In this document: positions 6,929-50,133 of the stretch, in pieces | Position numbering within the stretch: position 1 is the stretch's first letter | How the letters are laid out: each line of letters begins with the position of its first letter | Source of the DNA: Smithella sp. | GTDB taxonomy: Bacteria; Desulfobacterota; Syntrophia; Syntrophales; Smithellaceae | Length of the DNA stretch: 62,736 nt | Direction: 5' to 3' | Assembly (NCBI GenBank): GCA_012522275.1 | Contig: JAAYKU010000052.1 | Coordinates: forward strand, 1 to 62,736 | Program-made: the position numbers and the translations under genes | Notes under the pieces: generated by a model | The model's input: only the letters and a program-made list of their open reading frames with translations | Database searches by the model: none | Told to the model about the DNA's origin: nothing

Positions 6929-8401
6929 CTAGTCGACTGACCAGACGGTGCGGCCGGCTGAATCTTTGAGCATAATATTTTTGTCGGCGAGTTCTTTGCG
7001 GATATCGTCGGCCAGCGTCCAGTCCTTATCGTCGCGTGCCTTTTGCCTTTTGGCAATCATCATCTCCACCCATGAGACATCCAGGCCGCTTTTACCCGCT
7101 TCTATGGAGCGGTCGGCCATGAAAAATTCATCCGGGTCGGACTGAAAAACACCCAGCACATTGCCGAAATGGACAAACGCGCCGGCGGCGATATCGAGCT
7201 GTGCCCTGAGGGCTGCGTCAGGCATCTTTTTTCCTGCCGCGGCAATCTGATTGGCCTGACGGGCCGCTTCAAAAACATATCCCAGAGCCTGCGCCGTATT
7301 GAAGTCATCATCGAGCGCCATGTCAAACTTGCTCACGAATTCATCCCAGCGGCCGGCCTCGTCCGACCCGGACTCCCTTTGCCCCCCGACATCTTGATTG
7401 CCGGCCTGCTTTTTCGCCTCCTTGAGCGCCTGCAGGGCTGTGTAACCGCGAATCAGCGCGGCTCTGGCCTCTTTGAGGGAATCCTCCGAAAAATCGACGG
7501 GGCTGCGGTAATGGCTTTGAAGCATGAACAGGCGCAGCACCTCCGGGTGATAGCGGCTGATCATGTCACGGATGGAAAAGGTATTGCCCAGCGACTTGGA
7601 CATTTTCTCGGCGTTTATTTTAACAAAACCGTTATGCAGCCAGTAGCGGGCAAACGGCTTGCCGGTTGCCGCCTCGGACTGCGCAGCTTCATTTTCGTGA
7701 TGTGGAAAAACCAGGTCCTCGCCTCCTCCGTGGATGTCGAACGTATCCCCCAGATAGCGGCGGCTCATCGCCGAACACTCGATGTGCCAGCCCGGCCTGC
7801 CCTTCCCCCAGGGGCTGTCCCAGGAGGGCTCTCCCTCCTTACTTTTTTTCCATAAAACAAAATCCAGGGGATTGCGTTTTTTGTCATTGATGTCCACGCG
7901 CGCTCCGGCCATCATGTCGTCAAGCTTGCGGCCGGATAACCCTCCGTAAGCGGGATAGCGATCAACGCCGAAAAATACATCACCGTCCGCCTCGTAGGCG
8001 ATGCCCTTTTGCTCGAGCATTTTGATCAGCTCGATCATCTCCGCCATGTGCTCGGTGGCTTTAGGCGTCACGGTAGGGGTTAAAACATTCAGCGCGGCCA
8101 TGTCCTCATCATGCAGGCGGATGTAGCGTTCACTTAACTGGCCGGTGGTAACGCCCTCGCGACCGGCCCGTTCAATGATCTTGTCGTCGATATCTGTAAA
8201 GTTTTTCACGTACGTCACCTGATAGCCGCGGGCCTTCAGATGGCGGAAAATAACGTCAAAAACAACGGCGGCGCGCGCGTGTCCGATATGACAGAGATCA
8301 TAGGCCGTTATGCCGCAGACGTATATTCCTATCGCGCCTTCGTGCAGAGGCTGTAACACTTCCTTGCGTCTCGTTTTCGTGTTGTAAATTTTTTGCGCCA
8401 T
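6929..8401 (-). CDS. cysS: Cysteine--tRNA ligase (canonical)
   Basis: Contains VCGITAYD..HIGHAR, GWHIECSAM, FPHHENE and KMSKSLGN, plus a C-terminal anticodon-binding tail. Confidence 0.95.
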   Translation of the reverse strand: MAQKIYNTKTRRKEVLQPLHEGAIGIYVCGITAYDLCHIGHARAAVVFDVIFRHLKARGYQVTYVKNFTDIDDKIIERAGREGVTTGQLSERYIRLHDEDMAALNVLTPTVTPKATEHMAEMIELIKMLEQKGIAYEADGDVFFGVDRYPAYGGLSGRKLDDMMAGARVDINDKKRNPLDFVLWKKSKEGEPSWDSPWGKGRPGWHIECSAMSRRYLGDTFDIHGGGEDLVFPHHENEAAQSEAATGKPFARYWLHNGFVKINAEKMSKSLGNTFSIRDMISRYHPEVLRLFMLQSHYRSPVDFSEDSLKEARAALIRGYTALQALKEAKKQAGNQDVGGQRESGSDEAGRWDEFVSKFDMALDDDFNTAQALGYVFEAARQANQIAAAGKKMPDAALRAQLDIAAGAFVHFGNVLGVFQSDPDEFFMADRSIEAGKSGLDVSWVEMMIAKRQKARDDKDWTLADDIRKELADKNIMLKDSAGRTVWSVD

Positions 8402-15153: not shown

Positions 15154-15975
15154 TCATTTTGACGCAAGCAGGGCCTGCCAGGTGTGGCGCTCCAGAAAAG
15201 ATCCGGAAACATTGTTTTCCATTTCCTCAAACAGCGCGAAGGGAACGGCAAAAGTCATAAAATTTGTCTCACCCAGTTGCTTGCGTACATACAGACGGGC
15301 GGAAAGGTCAGTCAGTCCCGCCACCGCGCGGGGCCGGTCCGATTTTGCCTCGCGATAGGGATAGATACCGATGACTTGACAGCCGGCGGCGTAAGGGATG
15401 ATCACATTTTCATTGTCGCCGCGACCGTAATTGGCCAGCACCGTCAAGGCGGAAAACTGATCCGGATCGACAAAGAAAATAATCGTCTGCGGTTTTTCCT
15501 TTGATGGATCAACGGCGGAAAGGGGCTTGAAGACGACGTACTTCGCGGGTATCTCGGTCATCGGCAACGCGTCGATAAATTTCCGGACATTTTCAGGGGT
15601 ATTGATGTAGCGCTCACCGTTTAAGAAGTTTTCGTGGCTTTCCTTCGTCATAAAAGGCTTGAGTTGCTCGGCCGCCGCGACACCGCCCGGCCGGGAGGCG
15701 TTGCCCGACGACAGGAAATGACAAAAACCTTCTTCACCTCCTGGAAAGTTTTTATACTGGTTACCAAAACCCAGTCCCACGCCGCCACCGAAGCATCCGA
15801 AAGTCTTAATGTCGGCCACAGACGTTCTCCCTTTAGCGGCAGAGGCAACCAGCCACATTACGCAGCCCCATTTGCCCTCGGAAAACTGCATGGCCCCGTC
15901 CGGTTTATCATCGGACCACAAAAGGGCCACCGGTTCATATTTTAGACGAACAGCCCTGGCAATTTGACTTTCCAT
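15154..15975 (-). CDS. DUF169-like protein
   Basis: Cys/Gly-rich core (GCVMW, FGCFGGG) and FFVDPDQ segment resemble DUF169. ATG at 15975 has AAGGAA 5 nt upstream. Confidence 0.55.
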   Translation of the reverse strand: MESQIARAVRLKYEPVALLWSDDKPDGAMQFSEGKWGCVMWLVASAAKGRTSVADIKTFGCFGGGVGLGFGNQYKNFPGGEEGFCHFLSSGNASRPGGVAAAEQLKPFMTKESHENFLNGERYINTPENVRKFIDALPMTEIPAKYVVFKPLSAVDPSKEKPQTIIFFVDPDQFSALTVLANYGRGDNENVIIPYAAGCQVIGIYPYREAKSDRPRAVAGLTDLSARLYVRKQLGETNFMTFAVPFALFEEMENNVSGSFLERHTWQALLASK

Positions 15976-16050
15976 TAGAGTTCCTTTGTCGGCAAAATTG
16001 TTCAATCCGCGGCCCGCCGGCTGTTACAGATCAAGCAGCACCGGCACCAG

Positions 16051-44925: not shown

Positions 44926-45002
44926 TGGCAGGCCAGGAGGGACTCGAACCCCCAGCATCCGGATTTGGAGTCCGGCGCTCTATCCATTAGAGCTACTGGC
45001 CT
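44926..45002 (-). tRNA. tRNA-Trp (CCA)
   Basis: Hand-folded cloverleaf: acceptor AGGCCAG/CTGGCCT, anticodon loop CTCCAAA, T-loop TTCGAGT. CCA is encoded. Confidence 0.9.
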
Positions 45003-45018
45003 GTTGTCATCCTTTTGG

Positions 45019-45168
45019 CTACTTTGTCTCCCTGTGCAGCTTGTGCCCACGGCAAAACTTGCAGTACTTCTTGATTTCCAGGCGGTTTTGCATCGTGCGC
45101 TTGTTTTTGGTTGTCGTGTAATTGCGCTGCTTACATTCCGTACAGGCTAAAATAATATTGTTTCTCAT
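45019..45168 (-). CDS. rpmG: 50S ribosomal protein L33
   Basis: Not in the ORF track. Hand translation gives [49 protein letters not shown], with GGAG upstream. Confidence 0.9.
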
Positions 45169-45181
45169 AATTCTCCTTAAC

Positions 45182-45257
45182 TGGAGCCCACGACCAGGAT
45201 TGAACTGGTGACCTCATCCTTACCAAGGATGTGCTCTACCGACTGAGCTACGTGGGC
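45182..45257 (-). tRNA. tRNA-Thr (GGT)
   Basis: Acceptor GCCCACG/CGTGGGC, anticodon loop TTGGTAA, T-loop TTCAATC. CCA is encoded. Confidence 0.9.
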
Positions 45258-45298
45258 ACAAATCACAAAAGGCAGGTCTGCACCCGAAGAAAATACAC

Positions 45299-45374
45299 TG
45301 GAGCGGGAAACGGGATTCGAACCCGCGACCCTCAGCTTGGAAGGCTGACGCTCTAGCCCCTGAGCTACTCCCGC
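45299..45374 (-). tRNA. tRNA-Gly (TCC)
   Basis: Acceptor GCGGGAG/TTCCCGC, anticodon loop CTTCCAA, T-loop TTCGAAT. CCA is encoded. Confidence 0.9.
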
Positions 45375-45397
45375 TTGCCCGTCTATAAATAAACATA

Positions 45398-45482
45398 TGG
45401 TGGAGGGGGGAGGATTCGAACCTCCGTAGGCTCCGCCGGCAGATTTACAGTCTGCTCCCTTTGGCCGCTCGGGAACCCCTCC
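45398..45482 (-). tRNA. tRNA-Tyr (GTA), long variable arm
   Basis: Acceptor GGAGGGG/CCCCTCC, anticodon loop CTGTAAA, 13-nt variable arm. CCA is encoded. Confidence 0.9.
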
Positions 45483-45498
45483 CGTTATGCTTCTTGCC

Positions 45499-45574
45499 TG
45501 GAGCTGGCGATGGGACTTGAACCCGCAACCTGCTGATTACAAATCAGCTGCTCTGCCGATTGAGCTACGCCAGC
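45499..45574 (-). tRNA. tRNA-Thr (TGT)
   Basis: Acceptor GCTGGCG/CGCCAGC, anticodon loop TTTGTAA, T-loop TTCAAGT. CCA is encoded. Confidence 0.9.
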
Positions 45575-45744: not shown

Positions 45745-46293
45745 CTATTGCTTATCGCTGAAATAATCTGCAGAAAAAACATATATCTCCGTTTCCCTGT
45801 CCTTCCACGCATCGGACAGCAGCCCGGCTTTATGGCAGGTTTCCTGAAGAAATGTTTCTGTGTCCCAGCCGTATTCCAGGGCCACCTGCGGCAGAAGCAG
45901 ACCGGAATTGTATCCGCGGACAATGTAAAGGCCATGCCTGCCGACTTCAATCTCGCCGATATCGGAAATCCTGGAAAGAGGGCTCAGGACTGATATTTCG
46001 AAACTCAAATCCTTTATCTCTTCACTCTTGAGCGACGGGAAACGCGGGTCGTGAAAGGCGGCGGCAACGGCCATTTCCTGAACCGTGTCGCTCAAAGGTT
46101 TGACCGCCTTGATATAGCCGATGCAGCCGCGCAGATGCCCCCTCTTTTTGAGCGTGACGAAAGCGCCCCGTTTTTCTTTAAGAATGGGCAAATCCGTTGC
46201 CGGTTTGGGCATCTCCCTGTTGCCCGCCTTTGCCATAATAGCTTTTTTGGCTATTTCCAAAAGAGCCTTTTTATCCGATTCTGTCAGTTCCAT
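45745..46293 (-). CDS. AMMECR1 domain protein (AmmeMemoRadiSam system protein A type)
   Basis: Hallmark LRGCIG motif in the expected context, and the ~180-aa size fits. Confidence 0.85.
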   Translation of the reverse strand: MELTESDKKALLEIAKKAIMAKAGNREMPKPATDLPILKEKRGAFVTLKKRGHLRGCIGYIKAVKPLSDTVQEMAVAAAFHDPRFPSLKSEEIKDLSFEISVLSPLSRISDIGEIEVGRHGLYIVRGYNSGLLLPQVALEYGWDTETFLQETCHKAGLLSDAWKDRETEIYVFSADYFSDKQ

Positions 46294-46316: not shown

Positions 46317-47135
46317 TTAATAAAATACCGCGGACGCGTAGCCTACCACTGAGCTTTTATCTCCTGTAATATCACCGGAGTCGGCATATTTAAGAAGCTC
46401 GGAATGACGCGCTCCGAGCAGCTTCGCGGCCATCATCACCGCCGCCATCGGCCCCCCCCCGCAGGCTTCGGCTTTTTTATGGTCGAGGCTTTTCATAAGC
46501 CCTTCCGCGTCATTTTGACGAATGCTGTCGAGCACAACACCATCGAGCAGGCCGGCTTGCTCATGATCATAGAAGTGGGACAGGTCCGTGCTGGCCACGA
46601 TCAGCACCCGCCTGCTTGCCGACACCCGGTGGATCACCGAAGCGAGCTCACGGCACACCTCCCGGCTTTGATCCCCCATGACCAGCGGGATGAAGCTGAA
46701 GTCACCGAGTGCCGCCTGCAGAAAGGGGAGCTGAATTTCCAGGGAATGCTCCTGCTGATGCGCCGGAGGGTAATCGATGATGATCTCGCTTAATTTCATC
46801 ATCTCAGCGGCAATCTCCTCATTGACAGGCACCACCCCCAGTGGCGTTTCATAGCCCCCCTGTCCGTACACGGAAACACCGCGAAAAGCGACCCTGTGAC
46901 TCGGCCCGACAAGAATAACCGCATCGTATTTTTTACCGTAAACGAATTTGTAGGCATAAGCCGCCACCTGGCCGGAATACATATAACCGGCATGAGGCAC
47001 GATCAGGCCGATGACCTCACCCGATATTTCTCTGTCGGGAACATTTTTCAGGTACAGGCCGAGATCAGCTCTCAAAACGGAAGGATTTGCCGGATACCAT
47101 GAGCCGGCAATAACAGATTTCCTTATTTTCCCCAT
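46317..47135 (-). CDS. Memo-like protein (AmmeMemoRadiSam system protein B type)
   Basis: Contains VAGSWYP, VPHAGYMYSG and TDLSH motifs. ATG at 47135 avoids overlap with the upstream gene. Confidence 0.85.
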   Translation of the reverse strand: MGKIRKSVIAGSWYPANPSVLRADLGLYLKNVPDREISGEVIGLIVPHAGYMYSGQVAAYAYKFVYGKKYDAVILVGPSHRVAFRGVSVYGQGGYETPLGVVPVNEEIAAEMMKLSEIIIDYPPAHQQEHSLEIQLPFLQAALGDFSFIPLVMGDQSREVCRELASVIHRVSASRRVLIVASTDLSHFYDHEQAGLLDGVVLDSIRQNDAEGLMKSLDHKKAEACGGGPMAAVMMAAKLLGARHSELLKYADSGDITGDKSSVVGYASAVFY

Positions 47136-47145
47136 AGTTCCGTCT

Positions 47146-49458
47146 CTATTTAAACCGCCAGATCGTCCCTTCCGGGCCATCGAGCACTTCAACCCCGGAC
47201 AGGGCCAGCTGATCCCTGAGTCTGTCTGCTTCATCCCAAAGACGCGCCTGCCTAGCTTCCTGCCTTTTTTTCACCAGCGCGTCAATCTCCTTATTGAGGA
47301 TCTGAGTTTCAAAACTCATCACCCCCAACACATTGTTTATTTTTTCCAGGGCTTTGACAATTTTCCCGGCATCCACTTGGCTGATTCTTCCTTCCGTCAG
47401 GGGGACATTGATATGACCAATAAACTCAAACAGGGCAGCCAGAGCGCCGGACATATTCAGGTCGTCATCGAGCGCGCCTGCGAAATCGTGATGCAAATTG
47501 TAAATCAGCTGGTCCGTATCGGTGAAATCCTCTCCGCCGGCGGCAGCATAAAGGCGGCAGATAAACGTGTCAATTTTTCTCAGAGTATTTTTTGCAGCCT
47601 GCAGCGCCTCCGATGAGCAGGTGACCGGCTTGCGGTAATTCACCCCGAGCAGGAAAAAACGTATATCCCTGCCGCTGTAGCCTCCTTTTTTCAGATCATC
47701 GATCGTTACCGCGTTATTCAGGGAGCGTGACATCTTCCGCCCGTCCACCAGGATCAATTCCACACTCATCCAGTATGTGGCGCCGCTGTGCCCGAAAGAC
47801 GCTCTGTTCATTGCGACCATGTTTTCGCAATGGGGAAAAATCTCGTCCGCCCCGCTGATGTGAATGTCATAAACCGTACCCAGGTATTTTTGCGAAATCG
47901 CCGCACATTCCAGATGCCAGCCGGGACGGACATTACCCCATTTTGTCTTGTAGTAAATTCCTCTTTTCAGTTCGGCCAGACCGGTCCTTTTCAAAAGAGC
48001 GAAATCGGCGGGGCTGTCTTTTTCGTAATCGTCGAGGTCCACGGACTTCCCCTGCCTTGTCTTCTTCAGATCGACATTGGAAAGCATTCCATAGTCAGCC
48101 AGTTTGGAAATATCGAAATAAACTGAACGCAGCTTTTCGTACGCATAGCCTCTGTCAATGAGCTTTTCGACGATCTTGAGCATGGCGTCAACGTTTTCGG
48201 AGGCCTTCACATAAATATTATCCTCGCGTATGTTTAAAAACCGGACGTCATCGAGAAAAATGCGCAGATACTTATCGGAATAATTAGCAAGGTCCATGCC
48301 CGCCTTTTCCGAGCCGCGGACAGACTTGTCGGAAAAATCAACGACATCGATTACATGCTTTACTTTATAGTCTTTTGCCACCAGATAGCGGCACAAGATA
48401 TCCGAAACGACCATGCGCCGGTAATTCCCCAGATGAGGAGCGTCGTGGACGGTCGGCCCGCAGGTGCGCAGCGACACTTGTGCCGCCTGCAGGGGTTTAA
48501 GCGGCACTTTCTGACGCTTCAGGATATTGTGGAGGCTCAGCGAAACGAGCTCTTCTTTGACCGCAAACAAGGACGTGCTCAGATAACGCTCGCCGCTGTC
48601 CGGAAAAATCACGACGATCAGCCCTTCTTCCATCTCGCGCGCTTTTGCGGCGGCGACAAACATGGCCGCGCCGGAGCTCATTCCCGCCAGAATGCCTTCT
48701 TCACGAGCCAGTCTGCGGGCCGTCTCGAAAGCGTCTTCATCAAGAATGTTCACCTTTTCATCGAGACGCTTCTTGTCGAAGATCCCCGGGCGGTAGGATT
48801 CGCGCATATTTTTCAGCCCCTGAATCCTGTGCTGTAAATAAGGCTCCACGCCGACAATACGGATTTGTTCGTTGAGTTCCTTGAGTCTTTTGGAGATCCC
48901 CATCGCCGTCCCGGTAGTGCCCAGCGTGGCCACAACCATGCTGACCCGGCCGGCGGTCTGCTCCCATATTTCCTGCGCCGTACCCAGGTAATGGGCGGCG
49001 ATATTATCTTCATTGTTGAACTGATCCGTCCCGAAATACTTGTCCGGATTTTCGCGCAGCATCCGGTAGGCTACTTCAATGGCGCCGTCTGTGCCGAGCG
49101 CCGCCGGGGTAAAATACAACTGTGCACCCAGCGCGCGCAGAATTTTCTTGCGCTCCTCGCTTGCCGCCTCGGACATAGTCAGCAGCAACTTGTAGCCTTT
49201 GGCCGCGGCAATCATGGCCAGACCGATGCCCGTGTTGCCGCTGGTCGCCTCGAGAATTATCTTCCGACGATCCAGCTCCCCTCTTTTTTCGGCATTCTCA
49301 ATCATGAACAAGGCGGTGCGGTCCTTGATGGAGCCGCCCGGATTGACCGATTCCAGTTTGGCCAGAATCCGGACATTTTTATTCGGATTGAGCCGGGTAA
49401 TCTCTACCAGGGGAGTGTTGCCGATCCGATCAATAATACTTTTATAAGAACTCAACAT
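47146..49458 (-). CDS. Fusion protein: cysteine synthase (CysK/CysM-like, aa 1-298) joined to a divergent cysteinyl-tRNA synthetase-like module (aa ~308-770)
   Basis: N-terminal NPGGSIKDR, TSGNTG, GTTGT and PDSGERYLST. The C-terminal part is colinear with cysS at 6929..8401 and has TCGPTV..HLGN, GWHLECA, FPHCENM and KMSRS. Confidence 0.85.
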   Translation of the reverse strand: MLSSYKSIIDRIGNTPLVEITRLNPNKNVRILAKLESVNPGGSIKDRTALFMIENAEKRGELDRRKIILEATSGNTGIGLAMIAAAKGYKLLLTMSEAASEERKKILRALGAQLYFTPAALGTDGAIEVAYRMLRENPDKYFGTDQFNNEDNIAAHYLGTAQEIWEQTAGRVSMVVATLGTTGTAMGISKRLKELNEQIRIVGVEPYLQHRIQGLKNMRESYRPGIFDKKRLDEKVNILDEDAFETARRLAREEGILAGMSSGAAMFVAAAKAREMEEGLIVVIFPDSGERYLSTSLFAVKEELVSLSLHNILKRQKVPLKPLQAAQVSLRTCGPTVHDAPHLGNYRRMVVSDILCRYLVAKDYKVKHVIDVVDFSDKSVRGSEKAGMDLANYSDKYLRIFLDDVRFLNIREDNIYVKASENVDAMLKIVEKLIDRGYAYEKLRSVYFDISKLADYGMLSNVDLKKTRQGKSVDLDDYEKDSPADFALLKRTGLAELKRGIYYKTKWGNVRPGWHLECAAISQKYLGTVYDIHISGADEIFPHCENMVAMNRASFGHSGATYWMSVELILVDGRKMSRSLNNAVTIDDLKKGGYSGRDIRFFLLGVNYRKPVTCSSEALQAAKNTLRKIDTFICRLYAAAGGEDFTDTDQLIYNLHHDFAGALDDDLNMSGALAALFEFIGHINVPLTEGRISQVDAGKIVKALEKINNVLGVMSFETQILNKEIDALVKKRQEARQARLWDEADRLRDQLALSGVEVLDGPEGTIWRFK

Positions 49459-49546: not shown

Positions 49547-49963
49547 TCAGCTGTCCATTTTGGGCAGAGGGATTTTTATGAACGAAACACCTTCTTCTTT
49601 CAGATTTACCTCTTCCTGCGGGGTTGTCGTTCCCCTGATGTTTCGTTTTTCTTCTTCGCCGTAATGAATCTTCAACGCCACTTCGGCAAATTTACTGCCG
49701 ACATCTTCGAAATTATCGGCGATATACTGGTGCAGAGTCTGCAAAGAGGTACCATGGCCGGCCTGCGTTTTGTTGCTCTCGTCAAGCTTTTTGGAACTCT
49801 TGCCCATAATGGCAATCGATGACGGTACTATTTCGACATTCGCACTGTTGCAAACGGGGCAGCACACCAGTTTCCGGGCATTCTGCTCGATCCAGGCCCA
49901 CCTGTCCTTAAACCAGCCCTCGAATTTGTGACCGTTTTCACATTTGATATCATAAATAATCAC
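49547..49963 (-). CDS. DUF1178-like zinc-ribbon protein
   Basis: (GTG)IIYDIKCENGHKFEGWF....CPVC matches the usual DUF1178 N-terminus. The longer ORF-track form runs across tRNA-Pro. ATG at 50023 is an alternative start. Confidence 0.6.
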   Translation of the reverse strand: MIIYDIKCENGHKFEGWFKDRWAWIEQNARKLVCCPVCNSANVEIVPSSIAIMGKSSKKLDESNKTQAGHGTSLQTLHQYIADNFEDVGSKFAEVALKIHYGEEEKRNIRGTTTPQEEVNLKEEGVSFIKIPLPKMDS

Positions 49964-50056: not shown

Positions 50057-50133
50057 CGGGATGTGGCCCAGCCTGGTAGGGCACTGCGTTCGGGACGCAG
50101 GAGTCGCGCGTTCAAATCGCGCCATCCCGACCA
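50057..50133 (+). tRNA. tRNA-Pro (CGG)
   Basis: Acceptor CGGGATG/CATCCCG, anticodon loop TTCGGGA, T-loop TTCAAAT. CCA is encoded. Confidence 0.9.

Follow-up and report, generated by a model that had tools for sequence, protein, structure and literature searches.

The stretch of DNA analysed here, called the window throughout, comprises 62,736 nucleotides of contig JAAYKU010000052.1 from Smithella sp. (Syntrophales) and encodes, at 47146..49458, a protein in which a CysM-type cysteine synthase is fused end to end with a paralogue of cysteinyl-tRNA synthetase (CysRS). A preliminary description of the sequence had noted one uninterrupted open reading frame (ORF) of 770 codons at these positions. 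This is borne out, with the addition of the strand, which had been left unstated: a single uninterrupted ATG ORF of 770 amino acids plus stop codon lies on the minus strand, the plus-strand reading of 47146-49458 being rich in stops. From its N-terminus the protein consists of the cysteine synthase (N) module (residues 1-298, 48565..49458, minus strand like all other parts), matched by PALP and cysKM; a short, weakly conserved linker (residues 299-308, 48535..48564); the Rossmann and CP domains of the CysRS-like (C) module (residues 309-623, 47590..48534), placed by tRNA-synt_1e and by residue mapping; and a helical (DALR_2) region with the C-terminal anticodon-binding domain (residues 624-770, 47149..47589), placed by DALR_2 and CysS_C. 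PALP, tRNA-synt_1e and DALR_2, the families that the preliminary description had proposed searching for, are all found: Pfam places PALP at residues 10-287 (E = 2.7e-70), tRNA-synt_1e at 321-623 (E = 1.4e-77) and DALR_2 at 659-713, followed by the CysRS anticodon-binding domain CysS_C at 721-768 (E = 5.7e-08). A canonical cysS gene in the same window (6929..8401, minus strand; TIGR00435, 548.5 bits) encodes a 490-residue protein with HIGH, TDIDDK, HHENE and KMSKS. Residues 309-767 of the fusion are colinear, as had been claimed, with residues 5-487 of this protein (31% identity, E = 7e-74), and the fusion itself passes the cut-off of the NCBIfam cysS model TIGR00435 by a narrow margin (365.7 versus 340 bits). 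The earlier view of an accessory paralogue tied to cysteine synthesis, in a genome that retains a normal cysS, is supported.

An AlphaFold2 (AF2) model calculated from a 31-sequence alignment has both modules well folded (predicted local distance difference test, pLDDT, 83.7; predicted template modelling score, pTM, 0.62), and it superposes on tRNA-bound E. coli CysRS (1u0b) over 481 columns. The linker is predicted to be disordered, with pLDDT below 50 across residues 289-305, and its mean column conservation is 0.59, versus 0.87 for the N module and 0.74 for the C module. A Foldseek search returned no solved chain spanning both modules.

The N module appears to be an ordinary, fully equipped CysM-type pyridoxal phosphate (PLP)-dependent beta-replacement enzyme. 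It aligns with the CysM structures of E. coli (2bhs) and Salmonella (2jc3) essentially without gaps, at about 45% identity and about 253 bits, and all of the cysteine synthase hallmarks quoted in the preliminary description are found. In the 31-sequence alignment, the Schiff-base lysine K45 of NPGGSIKDR (the S-x-K-D-R motif; codon at 49324-49326), residues T72 to G77 of the TSGNTG loop (residues 72-77, the Asn loop that binds the substrate carboxylate) and G180, T181, G183 and T184 of the GTTGT phosphate loop (residues 180-184) are invariant, as are, wholly or nearly, most positions of the PDSGERYLST tail. The fusion scores above the cut-off of the NCBIfam cysKM model (TIGR01136, 361.9 versus 344.15 bits) and below that of the CysM equivalog (TIGR01138, 357.4 versus 394.2 bits), so that the N module is a member of the cysKM subfamily rather than an assured CysM equivalog. 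It is predicted to make L-cysteine from an activated serine and a sulfur nucleophile; its sequence is compatible with O-acetylserine and O-phosphoserine alike and cannot tell between them as donor.

How far has the C module departed from a synthetase? Mapping its residues onto E. coli CysRS numbering by alignment to 1LI5 and 1U0B, we compared 82 canonical CysRS from an exhaustive representative search with 78 Syntrophales fusion proteins. The substitutions listed in the preliminary description as drifted catalytic signatures are all correct: in the window protein, HLGN (48424-48435, minus strand) stands at the HIGH-type motif, VDFSDK replaces the TDIDDK of the canonical copy, FPHCENM (47818-47838, minus strand) is the counterpart of FPHHENE and KMSRS (47722-47736, minus strand) that of KMSKS. 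The term drift does not apply to HLGN, however, since N stands at position 40 in 64 of the 82 canonical CysRS most similar to the fusion, and both H37 and G39 are kept in 78/78 Syntrophales fusions. The divergence proper goes well beyond those motifs and follows a more regular pattern. Among 86 positions that are at least 85% conserved in canonical CysRS, 61 are kept and 17 are systematically replaced in Syntrophales, the replacements lying around the active site and in the CP domain, where the C module also carries a rebuilt loop, DFxLLKR..L.ELKRG. Residues invariant in the 82 canonical proteins have given way at Y26 (H or R), T68 (V/I; V, I or M in 78/78), G226 (S in 78/78), H235 (C in 70/78), E238 (I, V, M or T, never E), H256 (N or G) and K269 (the R of KMSRS, 78/78). 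Two further replaced positions are Y33, Y in 96% of canonical proteins and H in 78/78 fusions, and Q241, Q in 99% and replaced by I. The remainder are T115 to S, R168 to S/T, W184 to L, W194 to Y/H/F, G201 to V/I, S210 to A, M212 to I and S242 to N/G. That several of the new residues are fixed (H33, S226 and R269 in every Syntrophales fusion, C235 in 70 of 78) fits a new constraint rather than decay.

What is retained is equally ordered. In canonical CysRS the zinc bound by C28, C209, H234 and E238 reportedly selects the cysteine thiolate, T68 is said to bind the substrate amino group, and the C-terminal domain is said to read the GCA anticodon. Three of these four protein zinc ligands are kept, the fourth, E238, being replaced: C333, W514, C518 and H543 of the window protein are the counterparts of C28, W205, C209 and H234 in the zinc and cysteine pocket; among the Syntrophales fusions, 77/78 keep C28 and 78/78 the other three. 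The KMS-S residues of KMSRS, including K266, and D229 are likewise kept at 100%. In the anticodon domain, R732, R736, D745, R748, G755, D760 and G764 of the window protein correspond to R423, R427, D436, R439, G446, D451 and G455, seven conserved positions each kept in 91-100% of the 78 fusions (mean retention 0.99), and R423, R427, D436, R439 and D451 in all of them. Judged by these residues, the Syntrophales C module would combine a remodelled yet constrained active site with an untouched tRNA-recognition module. The retained zinc-pocket residues, the H-x-G and KMSRS show next to no variation, so that some ligand must still occupy the pocket; cysteine, either alone or together with ATP, is a plausible one. 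Both the general zinc-thiol mechanism of CysRS and the tRNA-Cys identity set, GCA and U73, are backed by the literature.

The gene is widespread and under selection. Scanning one genome per GTDB species yielded 204 stretches encoding it, of which 80 loci were kept for comparison; 78 of these carry an intact single ORF of 769-783 amino acids (59-88% identity), all in Syntrophales and complete chromosomes included. More than 120 clusters of about 770 amino acids, at 73-100% identity, came up in a database search, the named ones all from Smithella or Smithellaceae. The median ratio of nonsynonymous to synonymous substitution rates (dN/dS) over 78 pairs is 0.056 for the CysM part, 0.076 for the catalytic part of CysRS and 0.155 for the C-terminal part, and 17% of columns are invariant in the C module versus 38% in the N module. 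An artificial fusion created by an assembly error or frameshift, which had been named as a possible refutation, is rejected in view of the intact ORF in 78/80 species genomes and the purifying selection. Broken copies were noted at two loci. One (L018, 2257-4593, minus strand) has, beside the intact gene, an extra fragmented copy in three ORF pieces of 61-86% identity, probably a pseudogenised duplicate; in the other (L062, 8001-10314) the ORF is broken near codon 640 and the match spans 2314 nt, a length not divisible by three, probably through an indel error or because the gene is a pseudogene.

The same architecture, for which the preliminary description had proposed a database search, was found elsewhere, and it extends across Syntrophales, Desulfovibrionales and other lineages. 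In a neighbour-joining tree of the representative search set, whose members are referred to here by P numbers, the Syntrophales fusions, split gene pairs and degenerate fusions fall into one clade, nested inside canonical CysRS of the HIGN type. P0121 is a near-canonical fusion within this clade, with HLGN, TDIDDK, HHENE and KMSRS. P0143 and P0142 are standalone CysRS-like proteins (HIGL or HIGT; KMSRS or KMARS) encoded 2-4 nt downstream of a PALP gene of about 300 amino acids, which is about 60% identical to the fusion N module and has N modules of fusions or fusion fragments as its best matches in the representative set; by these matches, the two gene pairs (loci L088 and L089) can be identified as a split form of the same unit. 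In P0122, P0125, P0126, P0128 and others, HIGH, KMSKS and the zinc cysteines are gone from the CysRS half. A search with P0126 identified such degenerate fusions as the protein annotated "cysteine synthase" in many Desulfovibrionales, among them Desulfovibrio ferrophilus, Maridesulfovibrio hydrothermalis, M. zosterae, Desulfocurvus, Desulfobaculum, Humidesulfovibrio, Salidesulfovibrio, Desulfoplanes and Desulfocurvibacter, the best 120 clusters listed all having 754-817 amino acids with PALP and tRNA-synt_1e. Of the positions conserved in canonical CysRS, the Rossmann halves of these 120 proteins retain 0.38-0.43, the CP domain 0.66 and the helical region 0.31; C28, H37, G39 and C209 are at 0% and K266 and K269 at 1-5%. 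The anticodon domain has a mean retention of 1.00, with all seven of its conserved positions present (97-100% each). This domain and the CP-domain motif AYEKLRSVYFD ... DFxLLKR..L.ELKxG ... WGNVRPxW are the signatures kept throughout the clade, whose CysRS paralogues are always fused to, or encoded with, a CysM of the fusion type. As several lineages have lost the adenylation machinery and yet keep the fusion, aminoacylation cannot be the function of the family as a whole.

A further CysM-CysRS fusion, P0123 from a Nanoarchaeota metagenome-assembled genome (L082-L085), has canonical HIGN, HHQNE and KMSKS and groups with ordinary CysRS. Its position in the tree identifies it as an independent event, and it perhaps serves a reduced genome as its sole CysRS. 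Another arrangement is seen in P0168 (858 amino acids), where a partial CysRS-like module is followed in tandem by a complete CysRS with canonical motifs.

The surroundings of the fusion gene are constant in Syntrophales. Immediately upstream, across an 88-nt gap, lies a DUF1178 zinc-ribbon gene (49547..49963, minus strand; PF06676, E = 2.5e-39), which is found in this position in 79/79 Syntrophales loci. The genes for AmmeMemoRadiSam protein B (46317-47138, minus strand; TIGR04336, 290 bits), immediately downstream, and protein A (45745-46293, minus strand; TIGR04335, 194 bits), beyond it, form a Memo/AMMECR1 pair, present downstream of the fusion gene in about 58 of the 80 loci from Syntrophales; the start of protein B is described as overlapping the end of the fusion, the coordinates given being 46317-47138 and 47146..49458. 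No radical SAM partner adjoins this pair in the window. The order YicC, gmk, pyrF, SpoU methyltransferase, pilC, DUF1178, fusion is fixed in Syntrophales, usually with the AmmeMemoRadiSam B and A genes after it. Beside P0121, P0122, P0123, P0125, P0142, P0143 and two Desulfovibrionales genes, DUF1178 and Memo/AMMECR1 are absent, and in the two Desulfovibrionales genomes examined the fusion gene stands alone. A conserved operon partner was rejected, none being common to the family members examined; as the loci examined hold no other constant partner, it is the CysM and the CysRS paralogue that form the functional unit. The fusions P0121 and P0123, although set in unrelated contexts, each have a nitroreductase-family gene next to them (L086, 10435-11959; L082, 7293-7802), and a DUF169 gene stands beside the P0121 fusion, with another in the window (15154-16005, minus strand); these shared neighbourhoods may be coincidence.

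Neither the window nor the related loci contain a dedicated tRNA-Cys gene or another special tRNA gene near the fusion, the tRNAs present being only those for Pro, Thr, Tyr, Gly, Trp, Leu and Arg; nor do they contain a SelB-like neighbour, and there is no SepRS or Sec machinery near the fusion. Rfam matches near the fusion were tRNAs only, with no regulatory RNA among them, and a scan of its surroundings for promoters and terminators returned sites no more frequent than in shuffled sequence. A tRNA cluster at 44926-45574 (minus strand) contains Thr-TGT, Tyr, Gly-TCC, Thr-GGT and then Trp upstream of secE-nusG-rplK, the tuf gene being missing between tRNA-Thr(GGT) and tRNA-Trp, and a tRNA-Pro(CGG) gene at 50057-50133 (plus strand) separates pilC from DUF1178, oriented against these flanking genes. 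This layout is kept in many related loci.

What, then, might the fusion do? The reading we favour, tentatively, is that it is a cysteine synthase coupled to tRNA-Cys by a neofunctionalised CysRS paralogue that acts as a sensor. The function common to the family, as far as conserved residues can indicate, would be the binding of tRNA-Cys. The C module would recognise tRNA-Cys through the GCA anticodon, in Syntrophales would probably also bind cysteine in its remodelled pocket, with or without ATP, and would use this information on tRNA-Cys and cysteine to set the activity of the tethered CysM dimer, so that organisms surrounded by an excess of sulfide would produce cysteine as translation requires it. 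Such coupling would make sense physiologically for sulfate reducers and syntrophs: as they never run short of sulfide, sulfur limitation tells them nothing, and the signal of use to them is demand. The logic would be that of the regulation of HisG by HisZ and of the sensing of uncharged tRNA by GCN2, and for a module that binds tRNA-Cys and is attached to a cysteine synthase, coupling of synthesis to the state of tRNA-Cys seems the simplest role to propose.

Several points weigh against this proposal. The regulatory role is drawn by analogy alone, and R423, R427, D436, R439 and D451 are putative anticodon contacts, after the 1U0B complex. The AF2 model yields no confident fixed packing of the CysM and CysRS modules (pTM 0.62), and as their packing is not confident and the linker is disordered, the model provides no allosteric interface and is uninformative on whether the two active sites face each other, as the preliminary description had asked. 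Moreover, KMSRS, the H-x-G and the retained zinc-pocket residues are strictly conserved in Syntrophales, which is easier to explain if ATP-dependent chemistry persists there; the C module is still above the cysS equivalog cut-off (365.7 against 340 bits); and since the K269A variant of E. coli CysRS is reported to keep translation activity, the replacement of K269 by R need not be inactivating.

The chief rival is that the C module is a working auxiliary CysRS which charges CysM-made cysteine onto tRNA-Cys in cis, and would thereby parallel, at the level of the protein, the way in which SepRS and SepCysS tie cysteine synthesis to tRNA. Channelling of this kind had been put forward in the preliminary description, and it is a possibility for Syntrophales, where the score above the cysS cut-off, the complete retention of H37, G39, KMS-S, D229, C209, H234 and W205 (with C28 in 77/78), an H-x-G-N that is normal in the closest canonical subfamily, the intact anticodon domain, the very short linker of about 10 residues and the reported activity of K269A E. 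coli CysRS in translation all agree with it; the independent Nanoarchaeota fusion P0123, with its canonical motifs, implies that the combination makes biochemical sense. Yet T68, H235, the zinc ligand E238, H256, G226, K269, Y26, Q241 and Y33 are replaced, a canonical cysS lies in the same window, and the fusion persists in sister lineages from which HIGH, KMSKS and the zinc cysteines have disappeared, so that charging is not what holds the family together. On balance we regard in-cis charging as rather unlikely. Less probable again, and in our judgement improbable, is new chemistry, in which the C module would activate or bind a CysM-made cysteine derivative such as S-sulfocysteine, cysteine persulfide or selenocysteine, or would present aminoacyl-tRNA-Cys to the PLP site. 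In its favour, enzymes of the CysM type can use other sulfur nucleophiles, the zinc-pocket residues that remain imply that the ligand is a thiol or thiolate, and the replacements T68V, H235C, E238I/V, G226S and Q241I are fixed and cluster at the amino-acid and zinc site; but nothing points positively to an alternative substrate, the invariant TSGNTG loop for a free carboxylate speaks for a free amino acid rather than a tRNA ester at the PLP site, SepRS, Sec machinery and a tRNA-Cys gene are missing nearby, and the degenerate relatives do without the pocket.

Two further explanations seem to us very improbable. One is a tRNA-independent cysteine ligase like MshC, acting on a small molecule or a protein, conceivably the DUF1178 product, whose gene is upstream in 79/79 Syntrophales loci. 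MshC is a known CysRS paralogue and its model matches the fusion in part, although the 178 bits obtained are far below the cut-off of 485; the anticodon-binding domain, which lies beyond the MshC match, is present with all seven conserved positions, and DUF1178 is absent beside the non-Syntrophales family members examined. This suggestion of the preliminary description is accordingly disfavoured. The other would make the C module an inert remnant or structural scaffold, or the whole fusion an assembly or frameshift artefact. The C module does evolve faster, as its smaller share of invariant columns (17% vs 38%) and the higher dN/dS of its C-terminal part attest, but a dN/dS of 0.08-0.16 means strong purifying selection, the ORF is intact in 78 of 80 species, complete chromosomes included, and a module of about 460 amino acids with invariant motifs has been kept across Syntrophales and Desulfovibrionales.

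The gene is real, conserved and apparently unstudied, and the CysRS paralogues to which it belongs, all with CysM as partner, make up a clade that is so far undescribed. It suggests that these anaerobes link the synthesis of cysteine to the state of tRNA-Cys. Aminoacyl-tRNA synthetase (aaRS) paralogues outside translation, of which this is one recruited to the metabolism of an amino acid, are a small and much-studied set, and HisZ, MshC, YadB, PoxA and the GCN2 domain have each revealed new biology. The present clade occurs in at least 80 Syntrophales species and more than 120 Desulfovibrionales clusters, cultured and genetically tractable sulfate reducers among them, and provides a natural series from near-canonical through remodelled to, by motif loss, catalytically dead synthetase domains, all keeping the anticodon-recognition residues. 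With this series one can ask how organisms bathed in sulfide match cysteine synthesis to demand. Databases label the members only "cysteine--tRNA ligase" or "cysteine synthase", whereby Syntrophales proteins may be miscounted as a second CysRS and Desulfovibrio proteins as plain CysK.

No published description of a CysM-CysRS fusion was found in the literature, in agreement with the earlier statement that no characterisation was known, and the fusion has to be placed by comparison with its parts and with other systems. Like canonical CysRS (E. coli 1LI5 and 1U0B; 8QHP is the closest solved structure), the C module has the full colinear fold of Rossmann, CP, helical and anticodon-binding domains and keeps C28, W205, C209, H234 and all conserved positions of the anticodon domain; it shares its H-x-G-N with the closest canonical subfamily. 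Unlike canonical CysRS, it is fused to CysM, has 17 of 86 conserved positions replaced and coexists with a separate canonical cysS in the genome, while the N module differs from E. coli and Salmonella CysM in carrying a CysRS-like C-terminal extension of 460 amino acids. A review of aaRS duplications from 2022 lists only MshC and CysRS* as CysRS paralogues. MshC, which is not linked to a cysteine synthase, has chains of 413-414 amino acids, and its match runs out near query residue 321 of 464, short of the C-terminal domain, whereas the C module has the full anticodon-binding domain; the MshC model TIGR03447 gives the fusion 178.1 bits against a cut-off of 485.1. CysRS* of Desulfobacterales, according to the same review, charges SelC*, is coupled to SelC* and SelB* and has no anticodon-binding domain; the fusion, by contrast, keeps this domain, has no SelB-like neighbour and is linked to a cysteine synthase. 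It may be, and we offer this with still greater reserve than the sensor itself, that the clade represents a third class of CysRS paralogue, a tRNA-Cys-specific sensor hard-wired to a cysteine synthase, with the window protein as an intermediate that still binds zinc, cysteine and ATP.

CysRS-type persulfide synthase (CPERS) is reported to require K73, K76, K266 and K269 for PLP binding and activity, and the preliminary description had considered such chemistry for the C module. In the Syntrophales fusions K73 is K in 62 and R in 15, K76 is variable (K in 49, R in 19, other residues in the rest) and K269 is R in 78/78, which disfavours this activity; it may be added that K269A E. coli CysRS is reported to retain translation activity. 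In the transsulfursome of methanogens, SepRS-SepCysS(-SepCysE), a PLP enzyme and a tRNA-Cys-binding synthetase also couple the formation of cysteine to tRNA-Cys. There, however, SepRS is of class II, SepCysS is of fold-type I and the chemistry takes place on tRNA-bound phosphoserine, whereas the PLP enzyme of the fusion keeps the loop that binds a free carboxylate.

A functional likeness, though not one of homology, is seen with HisZ, a HisRS paralogue that serves as the regulatory subunit of the ATP-phosphoribosyltransferase HisG, has no adenylation activity and mediates feedback by the amino acid. In both cases an aaRS paralogue is physically joined to an enzyme making the cognate amino acid. 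HisZ, however, is of class II and the C module has the class I fold; HisZ is a separate subunit on the first enzyme of its pathway, while the C module is fused to, or in an operon with, the last. The adenylation motifs have been lost in Desulfovibrionales and several other lineages and are kept in altered form in Syntrophales, and since the anticodon-binding residues of the C module are its best conserved, tRNA, and not only the amino acid as for HisZ, is indicated as the ligand. In GCN2 an aaRS-like domain, here resembling HisRS, is fused to an effector; this domain is altered or dead as a catalyst and takes uncharged tRNA as its signal. The fusion shares with it the joining of an aaRS-like domain to an effector enzyme, and by analogy only might respond to the charging state as well; GCN2, in contrast, is eukaryotic, has a kinase as its effector and is not specific for one tRNA species. 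If the proposed coupling is true, the sulfide-saturated anaerobes of the Syntrophales and Desulfovibrionales would have in the fusion a bacterial counterpart to GCN2 or HisZ that is specific for one amino acid.

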